A model generated the notes under the pieces. The model searched no databases. It had not been told where the DNA came from and saw only the letters and a program-made list of their open reading frames with translations. From NCBI GenBank assembly GCA_963666835.2, contig CAXXGO010000006.1, positions 192,001-256,000 on the forward strand: DNA of 64,000 nt. Direction: 5' to 3'. This DNA comes from Phycisphaerae bacterium. GTDB lineage: Bacteria > Planctomycetota > Phycisphaerae > UBA1845. A program made the translations under genes and the position numbers. Below, piece after piece: positions 3,864-36,505 of this stretch. Every line of letters begins with the position of its first letter. The first letter of the stretch is position 1.

Positions 3864-3903
3864 GCGTCGTGCCGTGCGGGGACGTTCTTCTCGGACTCTC
3901 ACC

Positions 3904-4641
3904 AGTAGCTCGGGCTCTGCCCAATGGTACTAACCTTGTCAGGGCGCCATGAGGTAGTTCGTCCCGAAGGGACTGTGGGCGAGTAGCCACGGGTGGAGCG
4001 AAGCGGAACCCGTGGGTGAGATTCGCCCCCACATGCTCCCGTCCCGAAGGGCCGGCGGACGTTTACCGGGATCGCGCGAAGACCCCGTAGGGCATGGTCG
4101 AGGAACGAGACCTGCCATCAAAGCCGCAATGGGCCGAATCGCACGAGAACGTGCCACGTGCGTGGCTTGAGGAACCAGCCCGCCAGATCTGCCTGGCCCG
4201 CGGCGCGAGTCGCGGGCTCAAGTCGCACGTCGACCCCAGCCCCGCCAGGCACTTCGATACTCGAACAGGTCCCCGCGGTCGCCAACGTGTTCCCGTATGA
4301 TGCTGCATCACCGGCGTTCGATCGAAACCTCGATGTCCTCTACCGCCCACAAAGGGCTTGGCGCGAAGCGGCCGCACGGTTTCCCCAGGCTTACGCCGTG
4401 GGCCCACAGAATCTGTCGCCCCACGGGGCTGCCCGCTGGCGGCGTATGATGGGAAGGTGCGCGCTACGCGAAAGCAACGGCAGGTCTCGTGCCTCGACCG
4501 TGCCCTACCCCTGGCACCGCTGCTCCACGTACACCGAAGGCCTTACGTCTAACCCGCGGCTACATGCCCACAGTCCCTTCGGGACGGATTACCGCACGAC
4601 CACCTACCGAGGTTAGTACCATTGGGCTGAGCCCGACCTAC
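3904..4641. mobile_element. Nested composite REP/MITE-like element with terminal inverted repeats
   Basis: GTAGCTCGGGCTCTGCCCAATGGTACTAACC at the left end is inverted at about 4609-4641. Inner inverted REP pairs; homologous segments at 25010-25272 (inverted) and 62070-62420. Confidence 0.7.
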
Positions 4642-5034
4642 TCAGAATGGCCCCGGAACAGCAGGCTCTCTACGACCTGCTCCATTGGCCGGGGGTCCCG
4701 GTGTTCAAGTCAGGTCCCGCCCACGTGGCGCCGCGCCGGGGGCGTGTCGTGATGATGCCCGCCAACGGCTACATGTTGCGTAGAGTCAACACGCCTGCAG
4801 ATTCGGCCCGTATCGAGGCTCGCCCGTTCTGGGACGCAACTGCGTAACCTCCGTCCAATGCGAATGTTACGCAGGTTGCCGCCGGTTCTGTTCCCCGCCG
4901 CAGCTTTGGCATACCCGGTGTACCCCTTCCCCTGTGCAACCGTGGAGTGGCGGATTCGTGGCGCAAGCTCGCGGTCCGATCACGGTGGCCTTGGGGATTG
5001 AGACACTTGCTGGCTACGGAGGGGGAGAGGCCGT

Positions 5035-5295
5035 ATGAATGAAGAGACTTTCCAGCGGAAACTCGCTGAACTCATTGCTGAAATCGGGAGCTTGCCGGCT
5101 AATGAACGCGACAAGCTCGAACTACTCGCCGCCCAAACGCGCGAGCGGCATAAGCAGCTCAAGGAGACCGTAAGCAGTCTTCAGGAGAGCATCGACTTCG
5201 TCCGCCTGGCCATCAAGTATCTGCTGTTCGATCTGGAGGCGACGCGCCGAGAGAACACTCAGCTTCGCAAACTGCTCGACGACGGCGCCCAGTAA
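5035..5295 (+). CDS. Small coiled-coil protein of a type conserved in planctomycetes
   Basis: RBS GGGGAGAGG; leucine-zipper-like LRLAIKYLLFDLEATRREN-type motif (FVRLAIKYLLFDLEATRREN). Family recalled, not searched. Confidence 0.85.
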   Translation: MNEETFQRKLAELIAEIGSLPANERDKLELLAAQTRERHKQLKETVSSLQESIDFVRLAIKYLLFDLEATRRENTQLRKLLDDGAQ

Positions 5296-5403
5296 TAGCC
5301 GTTAACGATTCTGAATACGCCCCCTTGAAGCCCGCGGACGACCATGTTCGCGGGCTTGGCATATATTGGGGCGTCCATCTCTCCTTAAAATGACTTGTCT
5401 GTG

Positions 5404-6600
5404 TCACTGCCCCAGCGAAACGTGCCCTTCGCCGGCCGGGGGGGCCGCGTCCGCCGGCTGCTTTGTCTCCCGCAACTCGTCCCATGCGGATTTCAGCGCC
5501 GTCGATAAGTCCGCGGCGACCTGCGCCCCACGTAACTCCTCGCTCAACCGCTCTACCTCGTCCGCCAGCTCGTCCCGCTGCCGCTCCAACTCGGCCCGCT
5601 CGAGCACCACGGCCACGATTTTGTCCGCCATCACCTCCGCCCGGTTCTCCAAGCGCCGTACGGATTCGCGTTCGTGAGCCAGAGAGTCCTGCAAAACACC
5701 CGTTTCACCGTCATGCCGGGCCTGCAACGCGGCCAACTGCCGATCGTACTCGGCCTGAACCGCCTCCAACTGCCGGTGATAACGCTGCTCGACGACCGCC
5801 AATTCGGCTTGGGCCTTCTCCTCATGATCCCCGCCGCCGCGCATAGCCGCCCGCGCGATTCCCCAGGCAGTCTTCAACGACTCGGTAATCCGGGCGGCGT
5901 GCGTTGTTCGGCGCAGTTTGGCCGCGAGACTCTCGACTTCCGCGGACAGGTAGTCGCGCTCGGCCATCACCCCGGCCATTGCCACCGAACGCTCGGATAG
6001 CTCCCGAGCCAGGTCCATCTCCCGCTGCTCCTGCTCGCTCAGCCGCTCTCGCTCGTGCTCCAACACCCCCTGCAGAGCCGCCGACTCGCCATCGAATCGC
6101 GATTTGACCGAGTTCATCTCCCCGATGTGGCGGACCTCGGCGCTGAGCAAGGCTGCTTCCACCTCCGTCTTCTCTTTAGTCATCTTGCGGGCAGCCTCCG
6201 CCTTCGTCGTGTGATGAAGGCATACCCCGGCGCCGCCCGCGATAATGAGCATGAACGCGACCGCCCAACCGGCGCGCGCCGAGCGTCGAGCTTGGGCCGC
6301 GTCATCTTCCAAACAGATGCGGGCAGCGGACAGGGCTGACACGGTGTCCGAGAACGTCGTTTGAATGGCTGCCAGGGTGTCCGTGTCGTGTTTCTTCTGA
6401 ATGGCTGCGGCCGCACCCACCTCGGCCAGATGTCGGCCAACCTGGGTCACCGTAGCCACAGCCTTGTCCGTGTCCACATCGACGAGGATATTGCGTCCGT
6501 CTCGCCGCGTTCGGAGCAGACCACCCCGTATTCTGCGGCGAATGGTGCGTATTGAACAACCGAGCGCGGCCGCGGCTTCCGTCTGAGTCATCCATGACAT
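5404..6600 (-). CDS. Helix-turn-helix + transmembrane + long coiled-coil protein
   Basis: N-terminal MTQTEAAAALGCSIRTIRRRIRGG (excisionase/MerR-like HTH), TM segment GWAVAFMLIIAGGAGVCL, then heptad-rich C-terminus. AGGAGG RBS before ATG at 6600. Confidence 0.8.
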   Translation of the reverse strand: MSWMTQTEAAAALGCSIRTIRRRIRGGLLRTRRDGRNILVDVDTDKAVATVTQVGRHLAEVGAAAAIQKKHDTDTLAAIQTTFSDTVSALSAARICLEDDAAQARRSARAGWAVAFMLIIAGGAGVCLHHTTKAEAARKMTKEKTEVEAALLSAEVRHIGEMNSVKSRFDGESAALQGVLEHERERLSEQEQREMDLARELSERSVAMAGVMAERDYLSAEVESLAAKLRRTTHAARITESLKTAWGIARAAMRGGGDHEEKAQAELAVVEQRYHRQLEAVQAEYDRQLAALQARHDGETGVLQDSLAHERESVRRLENRAEVMADKIVAVVLERAELERQRDELADEVERLSEELRGAQVAADLSTALKSAWDELRETKQPADAAPPAGEGHVSLGQ

Positions 6601-6993
6601 GGGCAGATCCTCCTGGCGTCCGCAGGTCAACAGCGGACACAACGCCGGAGCCGACCGCAGGCGGACACCGGCCAACTTGTCGGCCAAACCCGTGCCGACA
6701 CGTCCGATATCCTAACCGGACACCCGCCGGTTGCCAACATGTTTCTGCGCCGTTCGAAGACTGGCCACGTGCGGCGACGCCACTGCTCAAAACGCCCGGG
6801 TACACCGAGCGCGAACAGCTAGGGTCCGCTCCGCGGACCACATTCTTGGAGACACGGGCGAACGCGAGGTCCGCCCGTTTGATACGGCCCGGCCTGCGGG
6901 ACGGGTGCGGCAGTCAAACGTGTATGATCCGCGTAGCGCAATAGGGCCAACCTTGCCCGGCGGTCATGCGGTGAACCGTTCCGACGTGGGCAT

Positions 6994-7188
6994 GTAGCCA
7001 CGAGTGGAGCGAAGCCGGACTCGTGGGGACGATCGACTCTCCCATAGATGCCGCCCCGAAGGGCCGGAGGAGAGCAGCTTTTGGGGAAGGCTGGAAGCCT
7101 ACGTTGCGAAGTGTCTCGAAGGGCCGGCGGGCCGTTACCGGGATCTTGCGACGGCTACGGCAGGTCTCGTGCCTCGACACTGCCCTAC
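6994..7188. repeat. REP family 2 copy plus inverted family 1 copy
   Basis: GTAGCCACGAGTGGAGCGAAGCCGGACTCGTGG at 6994, CCCGAAGGG mini-hairpins, family 1 at 7159-7188(-). Confidence 0.75.
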
Positions 7189-7310
7189 GGGGGATCCGCT
7201 CCGCGGACCACATTTGCCTAAGGATCGGCGGCGCTTGATGGACAACCGGATGAAGACGGTTGCCCGCAGGGGCGGCTTTGGCGACACCCCAAACACCAGC
7301 CCCAGACGGC

Positions 7311-7693
7311 TGTCCGGTATGTCCGCGCGTGTCCTTTTGATGTCCGGACAGGACGATTCGCTGCTGTCCGGACAGGCGCTGTTGGTAGTGTCCGGACGGA
7401 GAAACGGCTCCTTTGCGCGGCGAATTGTCCCAACGGCGTCCGGGTGGAATCTAGCGTCGACGGTATCGGCATCGCGGCCGTACGCCGACCATGCTGACCG
7501 CCAAGTCCGGTGTCTGTAACATCCCGCCGCTGTGTAGATTATCACTATGTCGTGGTCGTTGGGAGCATTACAGATAGGACAGTTGCCGGCGGGGCTGAGG
7601 GTATCGGAGCACGTGAATGTGTGTCCGGTATGGCTGCTGATATGTCCGGCGGACACGACCATGACGGAATTATATTGCAGGGACGCCGTGTCC
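7311..7693. repeat. Array of TGTCC/GGACA motifs, including perfect palindromes TGTCCGGACA
   Basis: About 14 occurrences in 380 bp; palindromes at 7341 and 7365. Confidence 0.75.
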
Positions 7694-7864
7694 GGTTCAA
7701 CCGGCTGCGGCTTTCGGACTGAGGACGGCCCGTCCTAGCGAACGCGGGGGCTTGCTTCGGCCTGCGACGGCGACGGGGCGGCTGACCATTGTGGTTCAAC
7801 CGCCCCATTTCGCCATTCTGGTGGTTGTGGGGTCAGGCAGGCCCTTTCCCGCGGATTCGGTTGT

Positions 7865-8788
7865 TTACGACGCGTCTGTGAACTCCACGCGTACCGCGTA
7901 CTGCCAATAGCCGTACGTCACCCGGTAGCGTGCCCGAACGCCGTAAAGGTACTTCTCGCGGCGGAAGCCCTCTTCGCTGTCGGCGGTCAGTGAGGTGAAC
8001 TCGATCGGCTCTCGATCCTGGAAGATGAACGGCCGAACGACACCGTCGGTCTTGAGCAGATACCACTTGGCCGGGTCACTCAGCCAGGGCAGGGCGATCA
8101 CACGTGCCGCGCCTGCCATGACGTTCGATGTATCCCCGATCAGGGTCGCGTTCAGCGTCTCGAGGGCGGTGAAGTACATCGTCGTCGGCACCACACACAC
8201 CAAACCCGACGCTGAAATCGACATCGCCTCGCCGCGGTCGTCCTTGAGGCCCATCATCTTCGAAATCGCCGTTTTCAGGGCCGCCTTGAACTCCTCAACT
8301 GTCGGATCGGTCGGATCGGCCACCGCGAGTCCGATCCGATTACTCTGCACGCCCGACTCGCCGGACTCGTGGGCGTCGCTGAGGAAACTCACTCCGTCGT
8401 AGCTGTTGAAACCGGCGGTTTCACCGTTGATAAGCAGCGCGGCCGCGAGGTAGTCCTTATGCGAAGCGGCCCGCTCGGCCAATTCCCCGATTCGGATACG
8501 GATCTGCCCGGTCTTGTCGTCGGCGATCTCATCGCGGTCGACCTCGATCGTGGCTTCGTACTTGAGGTTCTCCACCGAGTAGGCCTCGCTTCGCATCCCG
8601 CGGGCCAACCGGCCCGAGCCCCATTCCCGCATGCCGGGCACGGATCCCAACCAGCGGTAGTTCTCACTGTCCGAATTAGACGGAATCCTCGTGGCCAGCT
8701 CCTGATAGTGGGTCGGGGCTTTTCCGAAACGGGCGAAGAACTCGCTGCGGAGCCCCTTGGTAAGCAATCCGGTATTGATAACGGCCAC
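7865..8788 (-). CDS. Mu-like major capsid protein (gpT family)
   Basis: YRWLGSVPGMREW, YEATIEVDRDEIADD, YDGVSF, WYLL, PFIFQDR, YGVRARY...GYWQ. GAAAGGAGG RBS before GTG at 8788. Confidence 0.9.
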   Translation of the reverse strand: MAVINTGLLTKGLRSEFFARFGKAPTHYQELATRIPSNSDSENYRWLGSVPGMREWGSGRLARGMRSEAYSVENLKYEATIEVDRDEIADDKTGQIRIRIGELAERAASHKDYLAAALLINGETAGFNSYDGVSFLSDAHESGESGVQSNRIGLAVADPTDPTVEEFKAALKTAISKMMGLKDDRGEAMSISASGLVCVVPTTMYFTALETLNATLIGDTSNVMAGAARVIALPWLSDPAKWYLLKTDGVVRPFIFQDREPIEFTSLTADSEEGFRREKYLYGVRARYRVTYGYWQYAVRVEFTDAS

Positions 8789-8892
8789 AATGGCCCTCCT
8801 TTCATTCTGTGATTCAACATGTCCCCTGTGCCGGGCTGGAATGAACTTGCCGAAAGGCGGTGCCGGCACCAGTCCGGCTGGCCAACGCACTC

Positions 8893-9657
8893 TCAGACGA
8901 TGTCGACCTGCACGAGGAACGGACCGGGATCGGCGGTCGCCCCGTTAGTTACGGTCAAGGTCAGAATGTCTCCGCTCGCCGCATGCACGCAGGCCAGCGG
9001 ACCGAGTTCGGAAGCCTCGTTGATTGCCGGGAAGACATTGCTCGAATCGAAGGTCTCCGTGACTATCGTGCCGGCGTTTATTGCCAACGTGACCACGCAG
9101 GTACTGCCGCTGCTTATCCCGGTCGCCGTGGTGTCCTGATTGACCGCTCGGGCCGCCACGATCCAGCCCTCGGCGGAGAAAGCGTGAATTGCTCGAGTGG
9201 GCAAGTCGGTTCCCGCGGCGAGATCATCAACCACAAAGGTGATGGTGCGCACGTGCCGGCGATCGGGATCCAGCCGGAGGATGACCTCACCCGCGCTCGA
9301 TACGTCCTGAGCAAGACCCACGAAGCTGTTGCCGGTTGCGTCGAAGGTCAACGTCTCGTCGTCAGAGGCGAAGACCGGACGGCCGGTGTCGGCGGCGGTG
9401 GCTCCGGCCAGGGGATGGCCGAAATCGCCGAGCGTATAGACTCGAACGGTGGTTGCGGCGTCGCCGCCCGCCGTGTTGTCGGCTTCATCATAGGCAAGCC
9501 CGACGAACTTGTCTCCGGCAAGCAAAGGCCGGGCGTATCCGGTCTCGGCGAGCCCGACGAAGGCGCCCTTGTAAATGTGCGCCGCTCCCGCTACCCGAAG
9601 CGTGCGTATTTCCTGATCGATATAATGGTCCACATCCCGGTTTTCAGTGAGTGCCAT
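8893..9657 (-). CDS. Putative capsid cement/decoration protein (DUF2190-like) with extra C-terminal beta-rich domain
   Basis: IYKGAFVG...GYARP...FVG...ADNT...VRV...G...VFASDDETLT pattern; lies between protease and major capsid as in Mu-like heads. GAAAGG RBS. Confidence 0.7.
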   Translation of the reverse strand: MALTENRDVDHYIDQEIRTLRVAGAAHIYKGAFVGLAETGYARPLLAGDKFVGLAYDEADNTAGGDAATTVRVYTLGDFGHPLAGATAADTGRPVFASDDETLTFDATGNSFVGLAQDVSSAGEVILRLDPDRRHVRTITFVVDDLAAGTDLPTRAIHAFSAEGWIVAARAVNQDTTATGISSGSTCVVTLAINAGTIVTETFDSSNVFPAINEASELGPLACVHAASGDILTLTVTNGATADPGPFLVQVDIV

Positions 9658-9691
9658 GATGATGCCGTCCTTTCCGGTTGGTTGATTCGAA

Positions 9692-10648
9692 TCAGTTAGC
9701 GTCGGTAGGGCGGGGATGCCCGGCGGCGCGCAGCGCGTCTTGTACGAAGGCCTCTTCGGTGGTCAGCGTCCCCAGATCCGGATTCGCACGAAACTCGGTT
9801 CGAGCGCGCGACGCCACCACGGCCGCCGCCGGGTCTTTCGAAGGCTCACCCACCCGCGGCACGGTCGCCCCGATATTGACCACCACCGGGGCTGTGCGGA
9901 GCCACTCGTCGAACAGCGCCTGATCGCGCCTCGCCAGGCTCTGAGCCCACGCCCGTTGGGCGTCCACGAGCTTACCCGCTTCGGCCGCTTCACGAATGCG
10001 CTGCGCCACCCGCTGGTCGTCACGCTCACGCTGCAGCTCTTCAAGACGTTCGCCGGCCGCGGCGAGCACCGTCTCGACGTCCGCACCACCTTCGAGCCCC
10101 AGCTCGGACCGCAAGGCAGATACGACCGCGTCGCTCACCCCATCAGCCGGCGTCTTGCTCCGATTCACCAGCGCCGGCATGTCTACGATTGCCGGTTTAT
10201 TCGTTAGCGCCGCGGAGTGAATGGCCACGAGCTTCCGGTCCGTCTTGCGGATAATCGCCACCGGCGACAGATAGCGGTATTCGCCGGCGGCCAGCATCTC
10301 CGCCCCGCGCGTAGTCCAGGCAATGTCGGCGAACAGACCGACTTTCGGCACCGCCACCAGCTTCTTGATCCACCCGGCCGCCGGAGCCTTTCCGTTGGGC
10401 GACGAATAACGTCCGCCCAGCGTCTGATGCTCGTAGTCGATCGGCAGATCGGTCCCGTGCTCCTCGAACGCCCGCGCCGCCAGCCGGGCCGACTCATCGT
10501 CCACCACGAAGCTGCCGTTGGCGCTCTCCACCTTCCCCCATGGGGCCAGCAGCACCCGCGTCGGAACGTCGTCTCCCGCCAAAGATGCGGATTTCAGCGC
10601 CCGCATCTCCCGCGCGTCGTCAAATCCCGTTGCCTTGCTTGTCGACAT
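9692..10648 (-). CDS. Mu-like prohead protease/scaffold (gpI family)
   Basis: LPIDYEH, APAAGWI, WT..G, YRYLSP and ALTNKP motifs, followed by a helical scaffold-like C-terminus. GAGAGG RBS. Confidence 0.9.
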   Translation of the reverse strand: MSTSKATGFDDAREMRALKSASLAGDDVPTRVLLAPWGKVESANGSFVVDDESARLAARAFEEHGTDLPIDYEHQTLGGRYSSPNGKAPAAGWIKKLVAVPKVGLFADIAWTTRGAEMLAAGEYRYLSPVAIIRKTDRKLVAIHSAALTNKPAIVDMPALVNRSKTPADGVSDAVVSALRSELGLEGGADVETVLAAAGERLEELQRERDDQRVAQRIREAAEAGKLVDAQRAWAQSLARRDQALFDEWLRTAPVVVNIGATVPRVGEPSKDPAAAVVASRARTEFRANPDLGTLTTEEAFVQDALRAAGHPRPTDAN

Positions 10649-10695
10649 GATTACCTCTCTTGGCCATTGGTCTGAAAAACCCCTTTGTCCACATA

Positions 10696-12006
10696 TCAAC
10701 CGGCGCGCTCACTAATCCGCTCAGAGCTGGTCGATCGCCCCGGCACGATCGCGGCGGTTGACCCGGATTGGGGTACGCCCAAGACGTCATGGAGCCACGC
10801 TTGTGGCACTTTCATCCCCAGACGATTCACGGCCGTGTCCAATACTTCGGTGAGTTGCTTGAGATCACGCGGTTGCTTGAGGTTCCGACGGAAATAAGGC
10901 ACGGGCGCGCAGTCCCCGAAGCGCAGCCGAACCAAGGGACCAAGCAAATCACGGCGAATCGTCCGACCCTCTTTGCGGATGTCGCTGGCGAGAATGTCCT
11001 GCCGCACGGTCTCGTGGACTCCGCTGGCCGCCACCGAGCCGCTCTGCCCCGAGATGTCGGTGGTCAGAGTCTGCCCGAGCCAGGTCTTGCTTATCTCCCG
11101 GTTCAGAAACTCGATCAACCGGCGATAGGGTGCTGCCGCCGCTCCGCGGTTCGATTCAAGCACCTGTAACTCGATCGCCTGACTGAACACCCCGGCCGCG
11201 TTGCCCCCCAACGACTCCAACATCTCCAAGAGCTCGCGTTTCTCCTCGGCAGTAGCCGCCGGATCGTGTCGGGCAATGCGAATCGGCATTCCGAACACCT
11301 CGGAGAAGACCAACCAGTCTTTCAACGCCAGGTTCTTCGCCAGGTACACCATGCTCGTTACCCGCAACAAACCACCACGCTGCGGATGACCCGATACGCT
11401 GTGCGGCGTGTGAATAATGAACTTGTTGGGGGGCGGATTGATCCCCTCGTCCTCGTTTTGGGCGGTGAGGATCCGCGGTCGGTCGAACGAATCGAGAGTG
11501 ATCCGGGTGAACTCCACCGGTACGATCTGCGCCAGACTCAACGCCCCGTCGGCGATCTCCCAGACCAACTCCGCTATCGCGATGTTCCGGCCCAACGCCA
11601 GCGCCAAGTGCTGCAAGACTTCGTCAAAAGTCTCCAATCGGCCAAGCACCTCCCGGCAATAAGCGGCCGCTTCGTCCGCCAGGCCTCGTTCCACCCGGTC
11701 GTCCACCTCGGCCGCACTGACCACCCGCCAATCCAACCCGGTGAGCGCCAGCCGCCGCGTATTGGCGACCGCATACAGATGGGCGTCTTTCTCCTCCATC
11801 TCTTCGAACAACTGCATCGCCGCGCAAAGATCACCGTCGTCCGCCGCACGTAACACGGCCGTGAGCCGCGACGGCGTCAAACCCGCGCTGGGATAATCTC
11901 GAACCGCATCCCGACGATCCGGCATGACTACCCGCCCCGGCCTCGGACGCTTCATCCCCACCGCGCGCCGCGCACTACCCAGCCATCGCCTCCAGTTCAT
12001 TGGCAT
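10696..12006 (-). CDS. Mu-like portal protein (gp29 / DUF935 family)
   Basis: GLTPSRL, LFEEMEEKDAHL, W..FSEVFGMP, EISKTWLGQTLTT, VHETVRQD. Confidence 0.9.
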   Translation of the reverse strand: MPMNWRRWLGSARRAVGMKRPRPGRVVMPDRRDAVRDYPSAGLTPSRLTAVLRAADDGDLCAAMQLFEEMEEKDAHLYAVANTRRLALTGLDWRVVSAAEVDDRVERGLADEAAAYCREVLGRLETFDEVLQHLALALGRNIAIAELVWEIADGALSLAQIVPVEFTRITLDSFDRPRILTAQNEDEGINPPPNKFIIHTPHSVSGHPQRGGLLRVTSMVYLAKNLALKDWLVFSEVFGMPIRIARHDPAATAEEKRELLEMLESLGGNAAGVFSQAIELQVLESNRGAAAAPYRRLIEFLNREISKTWLGQTLTTDISGQSGSVAASGVHETVRQDILASDIRKEGRTIRRDLLGPLVRLRFGDCAPVPYFRRNLKQPRDLKQLTEVLDTAVNRLGMKVPQAWLHDVLGVPQSGSTAAIVPGRSTSSERISERAG

Positions 12007-12198
12007 ACCCTCCCCGTGTTCATAGCCGCACTTATCCCCTTTGAGAATCAGGCCCGTTGGGGGCACTCCCCCCAACAGCAAAGACCGTCCAGCCACTTCC
12101 CCGCACCAACAACGGCCGCCCAACGCCCTTCCCCTCGCAACACTAAACGTCGCTCAGCGCACCGGTCCTAACCTCTGCAGGCTGCCATGCGGCAACGC

Positions 12199-12310
12199 GT
12201 CCCGAAGGGACATAAGGCATGTAGCCACGGGTGGAGCGAAGCGGAACCTGTGGGGGCGATCGCACACGTGTTCCCGTCCCGAAGGGCCGGCGGACGGTTG
12301 CCGGAATTGC
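12199..12310. repeat. REP family 2 element between terminase and portal genes
   Basis: GTCCCGAAGGGAC...GTAGCCACGGGTGGAGCGAAGCGGAACCTGTGG (12221)...CCCGAAGGGCCGGCGGACG, matching 3961-4060 and 25115-25215. Confidence 0.85.
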
Positions 12311-12361
12311 GCGACGGCCTGAATGGACCCAAACTACGGACGGCAATTGACCTTGGGGGTT

Positions 12362-13717
12362 TCACCACGCGCCCTTTCGCGCAAACTGCAACGGGCCGAC
12401 GTTCATGACCTCGGCCTTGCCCGTGCTGCTGCGGGCGGCGTAGACCGCCAGAGCCGCCGCCCAGAACCGATCGGCATGGCTACCCTCCACGCGCGGTGCG
12501 GAAAGCCGTAAGTGCCCCGCACTTGTCACGGCACGTTGTACGGCGTGCCAGTCATTGCGAATGCGCTCATCATCCGGAATCCGGATCTGCCTTGCCTCGA
12601 CCGCAATCCGCAACCCGCCCGCGATCTGTGATTTGAGCGCCGGCGTGAATGTGACCGGTTCGACCCGATGCCCCCCGAACCGCTCGACGAGTTGCTCGGA
12701 CAGTTGCATGCCGAGTCCGCCCGCATCGATCGCGCAGCGGCGCACGGTCGGCAGCGCCATCAGAGTACTGAGCACCTCGAACTGCCGCGTGAACGAGGTG
12801 TTGGCCAGCTCGACGACCGCCACCGTTCGCCACACCGACCCTTCACTAGCCAGGACCCACGCCGCCGTCAGATCGCGCACCCGCCCGACGTCTACCCCCA
12901 CGAACAGCTCACGCGTTTCGCACGCCAGAGGCTCCACTTCGCAATGGCACACCAACGCGTCGTCCACGCAATCGGTTATCTGCTCATAGGTGAGAAACGC
13001 GGTCGACTCATCGATGAACTCGCAAAGAAACTCCTGCCGAAAGAGGGTCTCGTCGCCCATAGCCCGCCGCATCTGCTCCACGTCCACATCTAACCCATAG
13101 GCCACCGCGTCCGGCAGCGTCAACAAGCTGGTGGTGAACCGCGGATTGTCACGCACCTGGCAGAACATGTTGCCGCAGCCCTTGGGCGTGGACGCCACGT
13201 CCAGCTCGCCGTCACCGCGAAGAAGCGTCGGGAACATCGCCGCCCAGATCTCGCGATCGAAGTCGTGCATCGCGAATTCGTCGAGCAGAACATCACCGGT
13301 GAAACCCCGTGCCGTCTGCGGGTTGGCCGGGAGCCCGATGACCCGGACCCCGCCCGGCAGGACGATCTCGAGCTGCTTGACGCTGAGCCCTTTGAAAAAG
13401 CGATCGTCGTAATAGTCCGTCGCAATCTGCAGAGCCCGGCAATGCTGGCGAGCCTTGGCCATCAGCTCCCGACTCTGCCGCTCACCGGCCGAGAGGAACA
13501 CCTGCGTTCGCCGCCGAGATAGTCCGCGGAGGATCCGGCGTAGTGATTTGGTGAAGCTCTTACCCGTCTGCCGCGCCCAGCAGTTCCAACGAAACCGGGC
13601 GTCACTTTCCACGTCTTCACGCTGGTACGGCAGCAGTGGGACAATCGCCCGGGTTTGCGCCGGTTGCCGAACCCGCGCGTTTCCGAGATGACGTTGCGCT
13701 GATAGTAACGTGCCCAT
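12362..13717 (-). CDS. Terminase large subunit (Mu gp28-like)
   Basis: LLPYQ, Walker A ARQTGKS, Walker B VLLDEFA, STPKG, FRQEFLCEF, nuclease motifs GVDVGR..D and HADRFWA. Start codon uncertain. Confidence 0.9.
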   Translation of the reverse strand: MGTLLSAQRHLGNARVRQPAQTRAIVPLLPYQREDVESDARFRWNCWARQTGKSFTKSLRRILRGLSRRRTQVFLSAGERQSRELMAKARQHCRALQIATDYYDDRFFKGLSVKQLEIVLPGGVRVIGLPANPQTARGFTGDVLLDEFAMHDFDREIWAAMFPTLLRGDGELDVASTPKGCGNMFCQVRDNPRFTTSLLTLPDAVAYGLDVDVEQMRRAMGDETLFRQEFLCEFIDESTAFLTYEQITDCVDDALVCHCEVEPLACETRELFVGVDVGRVRDLTAAWVLASEGSVWRTVAVVELANTSFTRQFEVLSTLMALPTVRRCAIDAGGLGMQLSEQLVERFGGHRVEPVTFTPALKSQIAGGLRIAVEARQIRIPDDERIRNDWHAVQRAVTSAGHLRLSAPRVEGSHADRFWAAALAVYAARSSTGKAEVMNVGPLQFARKGAW

Positions 13718-13840
13718 GCGAGTGCATTACCGGTGTCGGACATTGCAGCCGGCCCTCGCGTCGGCATTCTCTCTGCCCGCATAGAACATGCCCCAACAAC
13801 GCATCACCTGAACGCCGGATTAACCTCGCCCCACCGATCG

Positions 13841-14042
13841 CCCGGGTGCCCCATCCGTCGCCCCAGGCGAAGGGTGGGGGATGGACCCGCAGCTTGATGT
13901 CTCACGTGACTGCCAAGCAAACTCCGTCAGGCAGGGTGGCCCATGTTCTTTTGAATCTAGCGCGGGTGCCCCGTCCTTCGTCTCCGGCGAAGGGTGGGGG
14001 ACGGACCCGCAGCTCGATGTCTCGAACGACGGTCAAGCAAGC
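13841..14042. repeat. Tandem copies of repeat family 3 (GCGGGTGCCCCATCCGTCGCCCCAGGCGAAGGGTGGGG...)
   Basis: Near-identical units at 13841, 13960, 14478 and 15209; partial at 14698. Confidence 0.8.
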
Positions 14043-14153
14043 CTCCCACCACCGGATGTCCCGCAATAGTTGAAAGCAAGGTGCGACACGTTGTATAATG
14101 TCCGCATCAAACAGGTCATTGCAGTGGGTCAGAATGGAAAGGAGTATAGGTCA

Positions 14154-14480
14154 ATGAGTGATTCTCTTCCCCCTATGAGCGCCCCGTCAATACCGCAGCC
14201 CCCTCAGCCAACCCAACCCGATGGTAAAGCCGTCGCGGCTCTCGTGCTCGGCTTGTGCAGTATGTTCCTGTGGCTGTGTCCTTTGATTGGGGTGATCGTA
14301 GCAATCAACGGTTTCGTTCTTGGTATCATTTCCCGCGAACGCCAGCGCAGCAAGATGGCCATGGCCGGGATCATCCTCAGCCTGATTGGCGGCATAGCAA
14401 GCGTACTCAATATGATCATAGGCGCGTATCTCGGCGCTACGGGTCAGCATCCTGTGATAAACGCGATGCAGCAGGGGTAG
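14154..14480 (+). CDS. DUF4190-like membrane protein
   Basis: Pro/Gln-rich N-terminus, GKAVAALVLGLCS, LGIIS, MAMAGIILSLIG. GAAAGGAG RBS. Confidence 0.85.
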   Translation: MSDSLPPMSAPSIPQPPQPTQPDGKAVAALVLGLCSMFLWLCPLIGVIVAINGFVLGIISRERQRSKMAMAGIILSLIGGIASVLNMIIGAYLGATGQHPVINAMQQG

Positions 14481-15365
14481 CGCGGGTGCCCCATCCGTCG
14501 CCCCAGGCGAAGGGTGGGGGACGGACCCGCAGCTTGATGTCTCACGTGACTGCCAAGCAAGCCCCGTCAGGCAGGGTGACCCATGTTCTTTTGAATCTAG
14601 CGAATGCCTAGTCCGTGGCACACGCGGGCGATGTGAGGTTGTTTGAACATGGGGTAGCCGATGATAATACCCGTTCGTAGTTGATGGCGAGTTGCAGCGC
14701 GGGTGCCTTATCCGTCGCCCCAGGCGATGAGTCTCGCTGCTCTACACATCATCCACCGCATTCACTGATTGCAGCCGTTCGGTCTTCGATCTCGATTCTC
14801 CAGCCCGAAGGGCTTGGATGAAGTAGACGGGGGCAAGTCCGCCATCGGCGGACGCCGCCCCCGGACCCGCTCCCCCCCCGTACCTGACCCCGCAGGGGGT
14901 CAAACAGCGCGGTGAATGTGCTTCGCCATTGACTTTTGACGCATTGTCAAAGAGCTCGGGCAGCCGAAACGAACTCGCGGTTCATCGACGCCGTTTCTTT
15001 CACCCTGTCAGGGTGATTGGGGTCCTTGTGACTCCACCGAGGGCGGCGGCCGCTACGCGGCCTTGCCCCCGTCTACTATCTTGTAGGCTTTCAGCCTGAA
15101 AAAGGGGCTAGCTTGCAGCTTGTCAGGCTGGGGAATGCGTCACCGCGGAGTTAGACGGATACGCTCCGCTCCCCCGGCAAAGATGTGTAGAACAACGAGG
15201 GCGAAGGGGCGCGGGTGCCCCGTCCTTCGCCCCAGGCGAAGGGTGGCGGACGGACCCGCAGCTCGATGTCTCGAACAACTGCCAAGCAAGCCCCGTCAGG
15301 CAGGGTGACCCATGTTCTTCTGAATCTAGCGAATGCCTAGTCCGTGGCACACGCGTGCGATGTCA
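14478..15365. repeat. Mosaic of repeat family 3 and an inverted REP doublet (family 4)
   Basis: Family 3 at 14478-14633 and 15209-15365; inverted pair GTAGACGGGGGCAAG / CTTGCCCCCGTCTAC within 14805-15100. 14975-15205 recurs inverted at 24725-24955. Confidence 0.75.
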
Positions 15366-15755
15366 TGTAAACGGATACGTGGTGGACCCGACGAACGCGG
15401 CCGCAGTGATGGAGAAGGTGACGGGTAACTCGGCCGTCGGCGTAGTCCTTGGCGGAACCGGCCCATAGGGTGACTCATCGAGGCACAAGATCTTCCCAAA
15501 CAGGTGGCATCGTTAGCGTCAATTGCCACGGCGAGGAACCCGGTCAAACCCAGTGATTCCGTGTCCGCCCAGCCGTTTTTGCTGGTTTCCCTGTCTCGGT
15601 TGCGTTACAATGGGGGACATCGCATGTGGGAGGTTGGGACTGCGCGCCCCGGCGGGTCCGACGGCAGAATCGCCCGTAAGCACCATCGGTCTCGGGACAG
15701 CCGAAGAGTCGGTTTCTTGGGTGACGCGTCGCGAATCGACTGCAGGAGGGTATGG

Positions 15756-18289: not shown

Positions 18290-18368
18290 GTTATACTCCC
18301 TGTGTCCGTCTGGTTCAGGTTATCGGGTTATCGTAAACGCCGCTTGAGAGCCCTTTGCGCGGAGATTG

Positions 18369-19001
18369 ATGCCCTTGCCGCTGCCCACTGAGACTGCCGT
18401 AGGGGGAATCGTGTTGTGCGGCGGCTGGAGCCGGCGCATGGGCAAGCCCAAGGTCTGGCTGCCGTGCGAAGGCGAATACCTTCTTCAGCGGATGGTTCGG
18501 ATCATTGGGGGCGTTCTCTCACCGGTCGTGGCCGCATGCCACCGCGACCAGTCCCTTCCGCCGCTCCCACCCAACGTGGAACTCGCGTTCGACGAGTACG
18601 AAGATTCCGGCCCTCTTGCGGGCATTTCATCCGGTCTCGATGCAATTGCGCGCTATTGCGATGCGGCATTCGTGTGTGCGTGTGATCACCCGCTGCTCAA
18701 GCCGGGTTTCATTCGGCGGATGGGAGAGCTTCTCGGTGATGCCCCCGGGGCGGTTCCGATGTACGAGGACCGGCTCCACCCGCTTACGGCCATCTACCGC
18801 ACGTCTACCCGGCCGTTGTTGTCGCAGATGCTCCAGGATGGCGAACTGCGAGCCCGGGACTTCGCCAGCAGATGCGGCGCGCGGATCGTTACGCCGGTTG
18901 ATTTGGGTGACGTCGACCCTGAGCTGGAGTCGCTGCGCAACGTCAACGACGCCGAGACGTTTGCTAAGGTCATCCAAGCAGACGGATCACATCTCGCGTA
19001 G
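18369..19001 (+). CDS. mobA: Molybdenum cofactor guanylyltransferase
   Basis: IVLCGGWSRRMG.PK, GPLAGI, ACDHP, HPL.AIY, NVN motifs. Confidence 0.9.
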   Translation: MPLPLPTETAVGGIVLCGGWSRRMGKPKVWLPCEGEYLLQRMVRIIGGVLSPVVAACHRDQSLPPLPPNVELAFDEYEDSGPLAGISSGLDAIARYCDAAFVCACDHPLLKPGFIRRMGELLGDAPGAVPMYEDRLHPLTAIYRTSTRPLLSQMLQDGELRARDFASRCGARIVTPVDLGDVDPELESLRNVNDAETFAKVIQADGSHLA

Positions 19002-19008
19002 GCGAAGC

Positions 19009-20709
19009 TTACTCGGTCGGCTTCGCTGGTGACATCGCCTGCGCCACGCGCTCAATGGCCCGAAGGGGTACGTGAATGTCCACCCGCGCCGGCTGGCCGG
19101 AGAGGCTTGCCGAGACTGCAATGACCGGGCCTGGGCTCAGCGGGCGGATGTTCGGCTTGCCCATCGCCGGGCCCAGCAGCGGCACCATCGCGGCCGGGTC
19201 CAACAACACGATCGTGTTCCATTTCGCGGGAAGTGCTGCCAGGGCCTCCTTCACATAGCGCGACGCGGATAGCGGGCTGATTACCTTGGGCGCGAACGCA
19301 GCCTGGATATCAGTACTGGTACCCGTGCAGTACCGCACCCATTCGGCTCGAATGCCCAAAGCAAAGTGCGTATTCGCTCCAAACATCTCGGCCGCCGGGC
19401 TCCCCGCTTCGGCGGTCATTTCGTATTGCCGTACCGACGTCGATCCGATGGCAACCGGCCCGAGTGCCTTGTAGCTGACACCCTTGAAGTCGTTCAATAT
19501 GGGGTTATCCGCAACGAGGTACTCCCCGGTCAGATCTATAATCCTTTGCGGATTCGGCCCGATGTAATCTCCCAACGCCGTGGCCTGCTCACCCTTCATG
19601 GCCAGCAGGGCCGTGGTTCCCTCAATCGCTCGCAGAAGCTGCCGAGTCATCTCGGCGCTACGCTTCACCGCGGCGTCATCTACGGCCGGTGCCGCATCCG
19701 TGTCGCCCGGGGCGCCCATGGTCGGCGGCGCCTGGAGCACCTTTACGGCCTGGTCGACGAGAAAGTCAAGAAATGGCGACTCGACCCCGGGCATGTGATA
19801 CGCCATGGCTATTAGGTACGGTTGCTCTTCGAACTGGGCAAACGGCGCAATACTCGCGGGCTTCTGGTTCGCCAGGTACTTGCGGATCACCCCGTCCCGA
19901 TACCCCGTTGCGAGTGTGATGTCTGCAGCGTCAGTACCCAGGTCTGCCCTGATGTCGATATACGAGACTTGCTCGACAAACGCCTTCACGGCCTCGAACA
20001 GGCTGGTCAACCCCGCAGTGAGCAAGCTCGGGTCAGCTCCCCATTGTGGGGCCAGCGCCATAGCCATCATCGGGGCCATCTGGGCAGTCTGGGCAACGCT
20101 GGCCACCGCGTCCTGCCGCAACACGCCCATGTTGACGTGCATGAAGACATTACGCTCAGGTAGTCCGTCCGGTCGCAACTTCAGCGTTTCGGCCAAGTTG
20201 CCCTCTCCGGCGGTCGCCCTGCACAGCCCCGCCTCATCTTTGGCGACGAGTGCGTAACCGCCGACGAGTTTCGCGCGTACCTGCTCAGTTGCATCATCAC
20301 CCCGGGGAATCCGCCAGATGTCCCCGTCTTTGGTTGCCCCAGCGATCGCCCCGACCTTTTCGGCAAACCCCGGCACTGCGGCCCAGAACACCATCTTCTC
20401 GTCGGCTTGCCCGTCTTGGATCGTGGCAAGCGCGAACGGCTGTTTGAAGTCGATCAAATCACCGATCCCCAGATCTTCTTTGAGATCCAGTAGCATGGTG
20501 GGCCCATCGCTGTCGGGCTCGACCCGCTTTGCGAAGGCCTTGACGTTCCGATCCAACCGTTCAAGGTCCCTCACGACCACGGTGAACGGTAGATCGGCGG
20601 GAATCAGCCGCAGAAGGCCCGCAGCCGCATCCGGTTCGGCGGATAGCGCCTGCCCGGTCGCGACGCCAACGATGCACAGTAAGGCGAGGAGAGAGAGGCC
20701 GCTTTTCAT
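19009..20709 (-). CDS. Hypothetical exported protein
   Basis: Signal peptide and 566-aa ORF directly downstream of parB; GGAG RBS. Confidence 0.8.
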   Translation of the reverse strand: MKSGLSLLALLCIVGVATGQALSAEPDAAAGLLRLIPADLPFTVVVRDLERLDRNVKAFAKRVEPDSDGPTMLLDLKEDLGIGDLIDFKQPFALATIQDGQADEKMVFWAAVPGFAEKVGAIAGATKDGDIWRIPRGDDATEQVRAKLVGGYALVAKDEAGLCRATAGEGNLAETLKLRPDGLPERNVFMHVNMGVLRQDAVASVAQTAQMAPMMAMALAPQWGADPSLLTAGLTSLFEAVKAFVEQVSYIDIRADLGTDAADITLATGYRDGVIRKYLANQKPASIAPFAQFEEQPYLIAMAYHMPGVESPFLDFLVDQAVKVLQAPPTMGAPGDTDAAPAVDDAAVKRSAEMTRQLLRAIEGTTALLAMKGEQATALGDYIGPNPQRIIDLTGEYLVADNPILNDFKGVSYKALGPVAIGSTSVRQYEMTAEAGSPAAEMFGANTHFALGIRAEWVRYCTGTSTDIQAAFAPKVISPLSASRYVKEALAALPAKWNTIVLLDPAAMVPLLGPAMGKPNIRPLSPGPVIAVSASLSGQPARVDIHVPLRAIERVAQAMSPAKPTE

Positions 20710-20799
20710 CTGATTGCTCCATTGCTTGCGGTATTCGCAGGGCCGCCTGATCGCGTTTGCTTATGGCGTTGGTTCCGTCACTCCGCCCAGCGGTCAGAG

Positions 20800-21738
20800 T
20801 CACTCCATATCCACGCCGAGCAGGTTCGCGATTCGATCGAACTCATCGAGCGAAAAGTACTCGATCGTGATCCGCCCCGTGCCCTTCTTCTTCCCCTCCC
20901 GGAGCGTAACCTTCGTTCTGACAGCAGCTTCGAATCGATTCTGCAGGTCGAGGACGTGAGGTGACCGCGTTTCGGTGCGAGGGGTCGCCGGCGGCGGCCC
21001 CTGTCGGGTCTTCTCCCGGCGGACGATTTCCTCCAACGCTCGCACCGAGAGCTGATTGCTGATGACCGACTCCGCAAGCTGCATCAACCGCATGGGATCG
21101 TCCACGCCCAGGAGACATCGAGCGTGTCCCATGCTCAGCTTGCCGTCTGCCACCCGTCTCTGGACTTCGTCCGGCAGATCCAGCAGCCGCAGGTAGTTGG
21201 CCACGGTAGAGCGATCCTCACCCAGGCGGTGCGCTACCTCCTCGGCCTTTAACCCGAAGGCGTTGCAGAACTGCCGGTACGCGGCCGCCCGGTCTATGGC
21301 GTTCAGATCTTCGCGTTGGATGTTCTCAATCAAGGCCAGTTCGAGCATTTGCTCTTCGCTCGCCTCGCGGACAAGCACCGGGACGCGAGCCATTCCGAGG
21401 GACTTTGCTGCGCGCCAGCGTCGTTCGCCGGCGATTATCTCATATCCGCCTGCGACCGCTCGGACGGCAATCGGCTGAACCATGCCGCTCTGGCGAATAG
21501 ACTGTGCCAGGGACGCTATGTCAGCCCCATCCGCGTTGCTCCGTGGTTGGAACGGATTCGGGATCAGGTCATCGACGTCGAGCATGGTGGCTTTGACCGC
21601 CCCGAGTGCGTCCCCGCTATCGAGGACCTGCTCCGTATGAGGAACGACCACGCCCGGCATTTGCGGGGGCATTCCCGTGGCGAGGTTCGAGACCAGCGAA
21701 TCGAGCCCCCTTCCGAGGCGTCTGGTGATCTTGGGCAT
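20800..21738 (-). CDS. parB: Chromosome partitioning protein ParB/Spo0J
   Basis: RRLGRGL N-terminal peptide, PNPFQPR, IAGERRWRA, ALIENIQREDL, RSTVANYLRLL, GHAR. GGGAGG RBS. Confidence 0.95.
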   Translation of the reverse strand: MPKITRRLGRGLDSLVSNLATGMPPQMPGVVVPHTEQVLDSGDALGAVKATMLDVDDLIPNPFQPRSNADGADIASLAQSIRQSGMVQPIAVRAVAGGYEIIAGERRWRAAKSLGMARVPVLVREASEEQMLELALIENIQREDLNAIDRAAAYRQFCNAFGLKAEEVAHRLGEDRSTVANYLRLLDLPDEVQRRVADGKLSMGHARCLLGVDDPMRLMQLAESVISNQLSVRALEEIVRREKTRQGPPPATPRTETRSPHVLDLQNRFEAAVRTKVTLREGKKKGTGRITIEYFSLDEFDRIANLLGVDME

Positions 21739-28180: not shown

Positions 28181-29143
28181 CTACTTGGACCGCCGGGCCA
28201 TGACGAAGGTCACGCCTCCGGCAATCACGGCCACCCCGAGCGCACCCGCCGTACACACCAGAAGGTTGGCGTAGGCGCCCTTGACCAGGGAAGGAACGAC
28301 CCCGCGCACCAGTGCCGCTCCCGCAAGTCCCGCGAACCACATGACCACAACCGCCACCGCCATGAACGCGGTGAGGGCGGCCGAGACGGCATCGCCGCCC
28401 TCTTCGACCATAACAACCGCAGCAGCCTGCGGCTTTGCTTTCGCCTTGGCGGGGGCTTCTTGTTCCCCTTCGATTCCGGTCGCCGTATCGTCGGCAAACG
28501 GCTCGCCGGCCTCTTCTTCGGCTTCAGGCTCCGCACCCGCCCGCGTATCTTCGCTTGCTTCGACGCCGCTATCGGCATCCTCGCCGGAGTAGATCTCTTC
28601 GAGCAACTCGGCGCCAAGGGAAGTGTCGTCACTCTCCTTGGTCAGATCGAGAATGCCCGAGCCGCTGCCTACTCCGTCCAAGCCACCGAGCCCGCCGAGG
28701 TCGGTCACGGCCGTCTGGGCGAGAGGATCGACCGACTCGTCCAGCTCGTCATCGTCGAATACATTGATGCCGACCGACGGGACGACGCTATCGCTCTTTG
28801 CCCGGCTGGCCGTGTCTTCCTTCCCGCCGATACTCGTGGTGCCGCCCGAGGTATCCGCCGAGTCCACTTCTTCCAGGCTGAGAATGTCGTCGTCGGCAGG
28901 GCTCAGCTCGATCCCAGAGTCTTCCGCCGGTTCCAGCACGACTTCGCCGCTCGCGCTTGCCGAACCGAGATCGATCAGCGAATCGCCCCCAAGCAGCTCG
29001 TCTACCTCTTCCACCTTGTAGCTAACGGATCCGGCGTCTCTGAATTCTCGCAGGGTGCCGGCGCGAACCAACTCCTTGATTTCGTCTTCCGTTTTGCCCA
29101 GCCGCTCGGCAGCCTCCGCCGCGGTATAGAACATTTTGGCCAT
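28181..29143 (-). CDS. HTH-domain protein with acidic disordered linker and C-terminal TM hairpin
   Basis: MAKMFYTAAEAAERLG...GTLREFRD HTH, D/E/S/G-rich middle, two C-terminal hydrophobic helices. Confidence 0.85.
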   Translation of the reverse strand: MAKMFYTAAEAAERLGKTEDEIKELVRAGTLREFRDAGSVSYKVEEVDELLGGDSLIDLGSASASGEVVLEPAEDSGIELSPADDDILSLEEVDSADTSGGTTSIGGKEDTASRAKSDSVVPSVGINVFDDDELDESVDPLAQTAVTDLGGLGGLDGVGSGSGILDLTKESDDTSLGAELLEEIYSGEDADSGVEASEDTRAGAEPEAEEEAGEPFADDTATGIEGEQEAPAKAKAKPQAAAVVMVEEGGDAVSAALTAFMAVAVVVMWFAGLAGAALVRGVVPSLVKGAYANLLVCTAGALGVAVIAGGVTFVMARRSK

Positions 29144-34096: not shown

Positions 34097-34290
34097 GATG
34101 ACTTTCTCTGTTGCCGTCCCCCACGGCTAAAGGGGGCGTCGGTTTAATCGATTTCGCGAGATTTAGATGGTTGGCTCGGAGCCAGAACATAGGTTGTCAT
34201 TCTTGACAGCCAACTCGTGCGCTCGATTTCGAATAAACCGACAGGCCCTAAAGCCGTGGGCCACCCAACTGGTGGGGAATTCGAACCACG

Positions 34291-36234: not shown

Positions 36235-36505
36235 CCATGGCCCTCCAACTCGACACGATCCCACTCCCTTTGGGTCGTTATCATATCCCGCGCTGACCTG
36301 CGTGCAACAGGATTCCGGCAGTGACTGTTGCTCGATTCCCTCTGGCGTCGGCCGCTCAAACAGGTAGAATAGAGCATTGGCTGCCGGGCATTGTCCGGGC
36401 ATCCAATCTGTTGTGTAGCCAGTAGTTACGATCTTCGCGGTCGCGGGCTGCCTTGCTGAAACGAACGGTGGCTGCGCGCACATCGCGCAACCAGATGCGA
36501 TCTTC

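Follow-up and report, generated by a model that had tools for sequence, protein, structure and literature searches.

We analyzed a 64,000-nucleotide stretch of DNA from a Phycisphaerae bacterium (contig CAXXGO010000006.1, positions 192,001 to 256,000; hereafter the window) that carries five head and packaging genes of the type found in phage Mu. The window belongs to an assembly of seven contigs that is 92% complete (G000). Comparison with related genomes shows that this module was evidently captured early in one Phycisphaerae order and has been inherited vertically since. Substitution patterns give good support to the view that the host maintains it under purifying selection, and we consider it almost certain that the module has been domesticated. 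In G000 the block has been inverted and its genes from the adaptor gene gp36 onward have been lost, so that the tail-less, adaptor-less state of this copy is a lineage-specific truncation.

A Mu-type head and packaging block among host genes

The five genes of the block lie on the minus strand, have open frames and match Mu-type families in Pfam and PHROG profiles:

12362-13717, minus strand: TerL, Mu/B3-like terminase large subunit (PF03237, PF17289, phrog_5909)
10696-12000, minus strand: portal protein of the Mu gp29 / DUF935 type (PF06074, 1.1e-87; phrog_113)
9692-10648, minus strand: gpI-like maturation protease with a C-terminal scaffold (PF10123, 2e-52)
8893-9657, minus strand: cement/decoration protein (phrog_1731, 3e-21 over residues 1-126; PF22758 below cut-off)
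7865-8788, minus strand: gpT, major capsid protein of the Mu gpT type (PF10124, 1.5e-57)

TerL contains the motifs RQTGKS, DEFA and STP together with D276, D331 and D416, and gpI contains H74 and S145; we take the catalytic roles of these residues from knowledge of the families. An initial annotation of the window had described five intact, co-oriented genes with catalytic motifs, which the profile matches bear out. It credited three of the genes with clear ribosome-binding sites. We found a Shine-Dalgarno-like run ahead of four, TerL being the gene without one. The GC content of the block (62-65%) equals that of its flanks. As annotated, the neighbors are host genes (prmC, murA, mobA, parB and dnaA-dnaN-gyrB), and dnaA starts 22.8 kb from TerL. 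A Pfam scan of 49 selected open reading frames (ORFs) in the window detected no transposase, integrase, adaptor or tail family, again in agreement with the annotation, and there is no small terminase gene beside the window TerL.

The portal protein is 51-68% identical to module orthologues from host families f1, f2, f3, f7 and f10, and gpT identity across module orthologues is 64-74%. The named phages nearest to the block proteins are Mu- or B3-like and share 30-38% identity with them. The nearest solved structures to gpT are 8rkc/8rkx (Mu GpT-domain) and 9jod. The cement protein has an additional C-terminal domain of about 120 amino acids, while prophage cement measures only 135 amino acids in total; this C-terminal part has a similarity of 0.92 to unnamed viral clusters, which we treat as a lead only. 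In gpI, 174 residues follow the Ser motif, against a module median of 170 (n = 52) and 256 in the single prophage scored. A scaffold about 85 residues shorter than in that one prophage hints at a smaller head. G000 contains two further gpT copies, one of them inside a Mu-like prophage that also has a transposase and tail genes.

Distribution, vertical descent and selection

A gpT match is present in 50 of 61 relatives (33 of the 37 high-quality genomes), mostly as a single copy at 64-73% identity, and a TerL match in 49. In contrast, the tube and the small terminase of the Mu-like prophage on contig C5 of G000 were each found in 5 of the 61 genomes. We also surveyed a sample of 301 genomes of the class that are at least 90% complete. 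gpT occurred in 45 of 50 genomes of the host order, one of which (G333, 48%) may be prophage-type, versus 6 of 250 outside the order, one of them weak (G296).

The module follows the host phylogeny. For 39 genomes with both loci, we set a tree built from the five module proteins, concatenated, against one built from GyrB; G009 and G029 were excluded since their GyrB is split or missing. The trees share 15 of 36 splits, whereas label shuffles gave a mean of 0.3 and a maximum of 3. Judged by FastTree supports, 19 module splits are strong, and 12 of these agree with GyrB while 2 conflict. Between module and GyrB, the Mantel rho reaches 0.85 across all genomes and 0.79 for the host family by itself. 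Families f1, f2, f3, f7, f8 and f10 make up a clade that excludes the C5 prophage, another prophage (L086) and a lone capsid gene found on contig C6 of G000. Capsid divergence is close to GyrB divergence through much of the order.

Selection was assessed by the Nei-Gojobori method. For G099-G143, the least saturated pair, dN/dS is 0.040 for gpT, 0.113 for TerL, 0.121 for the portal, 0.168 for gpI and 0.063 for cement, compared with 0.053 for GyrB. In TerL, the Walker A motif RQxGKS is present in 22 of 22 covering rows, and DEFA, STP, D276 and D416 in 23 of 23. The gpI His motif occurs in 33 of 33 covering rows; the Ser is found in 28 and is Pro in all seven rows from family f6. The proposal of a host-maintained module thus holds: nearly all genomes of the order have it, its tree agrees with that of the host, and purifying selection acts on it. 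The initial annotation had named absence from relatives or patchiness, dN/dS near 1, placement among active prophages and mis-assembly as grounds for giving up its reading, and we observed none of these.

Two further sets of loci came to light in this survey. In family f20, which belongs to another order, three of four genomes (L104, L105) carry a head module that has diverged; it comprises a terminase-like pair that is split, a different protease, and gp36-like and tail-tip-like genes. The f20 module is maybe an independent domestication. Scattered TerL paralogues with 35-39% identity occur about nine times in G031 and about six times in G058 (L234, L235, L149-L156). Two 10-kb regions around them contain small element-like neighbors and no capsid among the called ORFs. 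These paralogues possibly mark a multicopy terminase-bearing mobile element.

Relatives retain gp36 and a collapsed tail

From 114 distinct gpT loci we set aside 14 with less than 700 bp downstream, 3 of prophage type and 4 lone-capsid, satellite-like loci (L089, L203, L204 and L207). In 92 of the 93 comparable loci, gp36 lies at most 1 kb after gpT. The sole exception is the window. Synteny gives the operon order in relatives as TerL-portal-gpI-cement-gpT-gp36 followed by a collapsed tail, which is of type A in 23 loci and type B in 59. A small terminase gene precedes TerL in 1 of 53 loci, and that locus is the prophage. Searches with prophage-derived profiles, which very diverged forms could escape, recognized no gpF, gpG, tape measure or small terminase in module loci, and no conserved gene lies between TerL and the host flanks in relatives. 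The initial annotation had treated the head-only state as an evolved design. This part of its interpretation does not stand, since relatives have gp36 and mostly a stub tail, whereas its view of a host-kept, domesticated module does.

The first tail gene of type A codes for a protein of about 280 amino acids that is predicted to fuse a tail terminator to a distal tail protein (Dit). In an AlphaFold model (pLDDT 82), residues 3-148 resemble the Mu tail terminator 9khy (Z 12.9, rmsd 3.7, 131 aligned residues; Foldseek E 1.3e-6) and residues 151-278 resemble the SPP1 Dit 2x8k (Z 10.4, rmsd 2.8, 116 aligned). In the prophage, two genes lie on either side of the tube and tape measure, and the halves of the fusion protein show weak, collinear alignments to them (E 0.006 and 0.0002). 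From this arrangement we infer that the fusion arose when the genes for tube and tape measure were lost and their neighbors joined. Hub- and fiber-like genes homologous to those of the prophage come next, and some loci have only the terminator half or no hub.

Type B consists of a terminator-like gene (a language-model lead only), a tube-like gene, a third conserved gene and variable small genes. The tube-like protein is closest to tube/Hcp folds, with a best Z of 5.6 for a model of pLDDT 60. Profile comparisons of type-B genes with the prophage tube, the type-A fusion and cement gave nothing, and PDB sequence searches with alignments of the terminator-like, third type-B and hub proteins gave nothing significant. 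Type B turned up only in host family f1 (21 of 36 genomes), where it fills one GyrB clade that includes G000; another 11 genomes of f1 have strong matches to type A. In family f6, four small genes come after gp36; they are conserved and have membrane or lipoprotein-like traits.

Inversion and truncation of the window copy

Host genes and repeats frame the block in the window:

5404-6687, minus strand: host gene with a helix-turn-helix (HTH), a membrane segment and a coiled coil (PF12728, weak); it lies upstream of TerL in the sister genome G020 and is no conserved module gene
6688-7864, no strand: downstream breakpoint region with repeats, at the position of the relatives' gp36 and stub tail, both absent here
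12152-12319, no strand: genomic repeat resembling repetitive extragenic palindromic (REP) elements in the TerL-portal gap (repeat families D3-D8; 68 blastn matches in the genome)
18366-21738, mixed strands: mobA (plus), an unknown gene (minus) and parB (minus), the block found after the module's last gene in relatives

G020 is the sister of G000 in the GyrB tree. Its gene order, reconstructed across two contig breaks, runs from the HTH/coiled-coil gene through an unrelated 770-amino-acid host gene, TerL in forward orientation and the type-B genes to mobA and parB. The window has equal outer flanks, a reversed TerL-gpT orientation and nothing from gp36 onward. The 770-amino-acid host gene is also gone from this site, its best match elsewhere being 43%, and repeats lie at both ends of the inverted block. 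At least one of the four genes mobA, the unknown gene, parB and the ArnT/TPR gene is present in 19 of 40 long type-B loci. The TerL-portal gap that holds the repeat is 365 bp by hidden Markov model ends, versus a median of 107 in 70 loci. Only this species has the head-only state, which goes together with the inversion and deletions.

We rejected mis-assembly of the block. The downstream junction is bridged without difference by contigs covering 4621-8579 (run X1) and 4658-8579 (run X2, from a second study), and contig depth is as high across the module as in the host flanks; the junction is therefore real and common to two strains. The missing genes do not appear to have moved. In a six-frame scan of the whole G000 assembly (92% complete), the gp36 profile and those of 12 further gene sets from downstream matched only the C5 prophage or nothing, and two alignment searches for dispersed neck and tail genes did not find them, although assembly gaps are possible. 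Dispersal of the genes, as in some gene transfer agents (GTAs), was thus not borne out. The genome-wide search for tail and transposase genes that the annotation had called for found them only in the separate C5 prophage and as a tape-measure piece on C6, and none at the module.

We also saw no sign of faster evolution in the G000 copy. Private changes at conserved columns number 2 of 129 in TerL, 3 of 122 in the portal, 1 of 66 in gpI, 2 of 25 in cement and 4 of 128 in gpT; these and the outgroup identity are within the range of the sisters, in a comparison with low power for recent loss. Against run X3, the listed differences comprise 11 synonymous and 4 non-synonymous codons, and four more differences on module contigs are unlisted. 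Eight of the 15 fall in one 184-bp TerL tract, and the rest divide 4 to 3, a weak signal. The HTH/coiled-coil gene at 5404-6687 was rejected as a small terminase, its phrog_57 match being limited to the HTH, its product having a membrane segment and matches occurring in only 5 of 40 relatives.

We made several other observations in the window. Palindromic REP-like repeat families are found at 3900-4650, 6800-7220, 12150-12320 and 13840-15370. Runs X2 and X3 have 826 bases in place of 667 at 14697-15365, a region that differs among strains. Strain differences are bunched in short, nearly all-synonymous tracts (murA 2783-2933 and TerL 13013-13196), suggesting homologous recombination from a close relative. 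A second protein with an HTH_17 domain is encoded at 28181-29143 near an OmpA-domain gene and has no tblastn similarity to 5404-6687. Genes for topoisomerase VI subunits A and B occupy 32957-36591, directly upstream of and divergent from dnaA-dnaN-gyrB.

A conserved element upstream of TerL

A conserved element precedes TerL just inside the inversion breakpoint:

13795-13842, minus strand: promoter/operator-like element with a GATCG box, about 20 nucleotides, and a CGAKCRCC..CACGTTnTT-type box

We derived its motif by seeded expectation-maximization on the TerL upstream regions of 57 relatives, with a seed chosen by eye from the same sequences, and obtained a log-likelihood of 294 versus 63-75 for five shuffled sets. 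The spacing of the first box varies and is exact in 10 of 39. With a matrix trained without the window, the window element ranks fourth among 12.05 million genome positions. We infer that it may act as a promoter or operator. A regulon search with the motif returned remaining genome matches at about chance level. A sigma-70 scan found no coding-strand site directly upstream of TerL within 400 bp, and G000 has no match to a Mor-family regulator.

The resident prophage and lone-capsid loci

The Mu-like prophage lies at the end of C5 (G000:C5:278000-308221; L087 and L088) and has a full late operon and a transposase gene cut by the contig end. PHROG matches identify its transposase, gpF, gp36 and gpG. 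We assigned its small terminase, terminator, tube, tape measure, Dit, hub and fiber by position and weak similarity; the tube, Dit, hub and fiber have no PHROG match. The transposase profile has its sole G000 match on C5. The module and the prophage are 54% identical in TerL, 50% in gpT and 38% in the portal. The only gp36 in the assembly belongs to the prophage and is 40-46% identical to module gp36 proteins. This prophage may belong to a so far undescribed family of phages akin to the module's donor.

The lone C6 capsid locus (G000:C6:1568981-1574994; L089) contains gpT, a divergent gpI and the tape-measure piece. At L089, L202, L203, L204 and L207, a gene of 150-180 amino acids, often a cement gene and a lone gpT (57-60% identical) share one strand. 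A divergent gpI lies on the other strand, where L089 also has its tape-measure fragment, and no terminase or portal lies alongside. Such loci might be satellites that redirect capsids, or else prophage remnants that have been rearranged. Pattern scans of viral contigs with gpT and the tube-like gene, which have low sensitivity, found no relative.

Proposed working and alternative explanations

We lean towards the view that in relatives the module makes a DNA-filled transfer particle, Mu-derived, of independent origin and resembling a GTA. A host signal would act at the conserved upstream element. The scaffold/protease, capsid and portal would build an HK97-type head, perhaps a small one. Terminases of the Mu type by nature make cuts in the host DNA that borders the integrated genome. 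TerL, which has no recognized cognate small terminase, might then fill heads with host chromosomal DNA by a headful mechanism, and loss of the specificity subunit would favor packaging of chromosomal DNA; the small terminase of the GTA of Rhodobacter capsulatus (RcGTA) is described as lacking a specific DNA-binding domain (PMC7947584). gp36 would seal the filled head, and the stub tail would bind neighboring cells. In G000, heads could still form, as the head genes and the upstream element are intact; they would not be sealed or tailed for want of an adaptor, unless the C5 prophage supplied one. We judge the G000 copy to be, on balance, a crippled remnant. It seems less probable that it is still useful as heads only, and a little less probable again that the prophage complements it.

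Several observations weigh against a transfer particle. DNA ejection and release are unexplained because no small terminase, gpF pilot, gpG, tape measure or lysis gene was recognized in the module. Tail genes have been cut back repeatedly: the hub is absent in L043, L044 and L046, and L094 and L095 keep only the terminator after gp36. Such reduction fits poorly with a strict need for DNA injection. The type-B tube-like call is weak and does not align to the prophage tube. The f6 locus (L097-L103) starts at the portal, TerL has no match in four of five f6 genomes, and the protease Ser has become Pro in seven of seven, which makes the f6 form a candidate DNA-free shell. In the unrooted tree, families f6 and f20 are placed further out than the prophages and may be separate captures. 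Two strong splits conflict with GyrB, the single host marker behind the comparison. For G000 and four kin, dN/dS is 0.11-0.33 at a dS of 1.0-2.2, which renders the ratios rough and blind to recent loss of function. Finally, RcGTA does have a small terminase (PMC7947584).

The main rival, which we think unlikely, is an anti-phage decoy: the host would keep the head proteins, together with a neck or stub tail that leads nowhere, to poison the assembly of related Mu-like phages or divert the DNA of these phages into non-infectious heads. A donor-like phage family still infects these hosts, as the TerL and gpT identities of the C5 prophage indicate, and a terminator-Dit fusion bypasses the tube and tape measure. 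Independent, repeated losses of tail parts alongside conserved head genes are expected if infection is unneeded, and a decoy would account for the intact head-only copy. Yet the module-bearing genomes G000, G005 and G024 still hold Mu-like prophage genes, and hub- and fiber-like genes are conserved in many type-A loci, which suggests cell binding. It is more doubtful that the module does some other job, as a DNA-storing or cargo shell or a surface or secreted structure and not as a gene-transfer vehicle. Family f6, which keeps portal, capsid and gp36 without TerL or the protease Ser and adds small membrane-protein genes, would suit such a role, as would the lack of any recognized ejection apparatus. 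Outside f6, however, the ATPase and nuclease residues of TerL are invariant and TerL heads the operon, which makes it look as if DNA translocation is under selection.

Slightly less probable still is tail borrowing, in which host heads would be finished with the necks and tails of co-resident phages, in the style of phage-inducible chromosomal islands that form capsids (cf-PICIs) but from the chromosome; here the C5 prophage would provide small terminase, adaptor and tail. According to 10.1101/2025.02.11.637232, cf-PICIs release tail-less capsids that acquire phage tails, and the prophage gp36 is the only one that G000 could use. The same paper states that the cf-PICI's own adaptor and connector set tail choice, and the G000 copy has neither. 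Moreover, the module and prophage portals are just 38% identical, a foreign tube would presumably find no open terminator face to dock on where terminator and Dit are fused, and such prophage genes occur in only 5 of 61 genomes. An ordinary defective prophage or an assembly artifact is very improbable. The copy is truncated and bounded by repeats, and the genome holds a Mu-like prophage and a capsid-bearing remnant, but most relatives have one close copy with common flanks, congruent trees and a dN/dS far below 1, and the junction is bridged in two studies at a contig depth equal to the host flanks.

A wider proposal, which we put forward only tentatively and regard as doubtful in its entirety, is that host-owned, Mu-derived particles with an essentially zero-length tail, in which the terminator is joined straight onto Dit with neither a tape measure nor a pilot protein, exist throughout the order and either package host DNA with a non-classical handover or act against Mu-like phages. 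The loci would then form a reduction series from a fused stub tail through a single tube-like ring, a terminator only and heads only (G000) to a terminase-less, protease-dead shell. Retention across most of the order and GyrB-like capsid divergence imply a long-standing host benefit. Naturally occurring variants lack different components (tape measure, hub, adaptor or terminase) and offer a ready test of whether selection acts on transfer, defense or another role. Because it is truncated, the G000 copy is the least informative member for experiments.

Relation to known systems

We compared the module with described systems. The initial annotation knew of no Mu-derived system of this kind in planctomycetes, and our search agrees: judged by title or the start of the abstract, with subscription papers and bioRxiv supplements outside its scope, the literature searched contains no description of the system, no GTA from Planctomycetota and no GTA built from a Mu-like phage. 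The operon is apparently undescribed.

An encapsulin nanocompartment differs from the module, whose operon has a portal and a terminase with conserved catalytic residues. Like cf-PICIs, the module combines head and packaging genes with the lack of a full tail or lysis genes. cf-PICIs are mobile, however, and 10.1101/2025.02.11.637232 assigns them an integrase, a replication module, a small terminase, an HNH protein, an adaptor, a connector and an HK97-like capsid. None of their mobility genes is present at the module locus, where we found no integrase/recombinase, replication or regulation module of the kind set out in that paper. Nor is there an adaptor-connector pair of its own for recruiting tails: G000 is without gp36, and relatives have gp36 with their own stub.

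Mu-like phages (Mu, B3, JBD30 and the C5 prophage) share with the module the same families in the order TerL-portal-gpI-cement-gpT-gp36-terminator, and identity to the C5 prophage is 38-55%. The module has Mu-type TerL, portal, gpI and gpT in Mu order but differs in having no linked transposase or early region and no recognized small terminase, gpF, gpG, tube or tape measure. Its terminator is fused to Dit in type A, which would be an unusual virion architecture, and unlike those phages it is fixed and vertically inherited.

GTAs are known from a handful of independent origins. RcGTA has a tube and a tape measure; the module has no recognized tape measure, separate long tube or small terminase, the last of which RcGTA possesses (PMC7947584). 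Family profiles also set the two apart, as the module parts are Mu-type (PF06074, PF10123, PF10124) and the host is a member of the Planctomycetota. With Mu-type head genes and neither small terminase nor tape measure at its loci, the module falls outside the RcGTA family, and in G000 the particle gene set is incomplete, the gp36 and stub-tail families matching only the prophage or nothing in this assembly. The genomic features by which PMC8987985 defines GTAs are nevertheless present. The phage-derived genes are fixed in the host and inherited vertically, purifying selection acts on the structural and packaging genes, and the scanned window ORFs and relatives' loci include no replication, integration or excision genes of the module's own. 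In these respects the module resembles the RcGTA-type GTAs of R. capsulatus and other Alphaproteobacteria, which likewise consist of head and packaging genes of phage origin that are fixed in the chromosome, passed on vertically under purifying selection and free of replication or integration genes.

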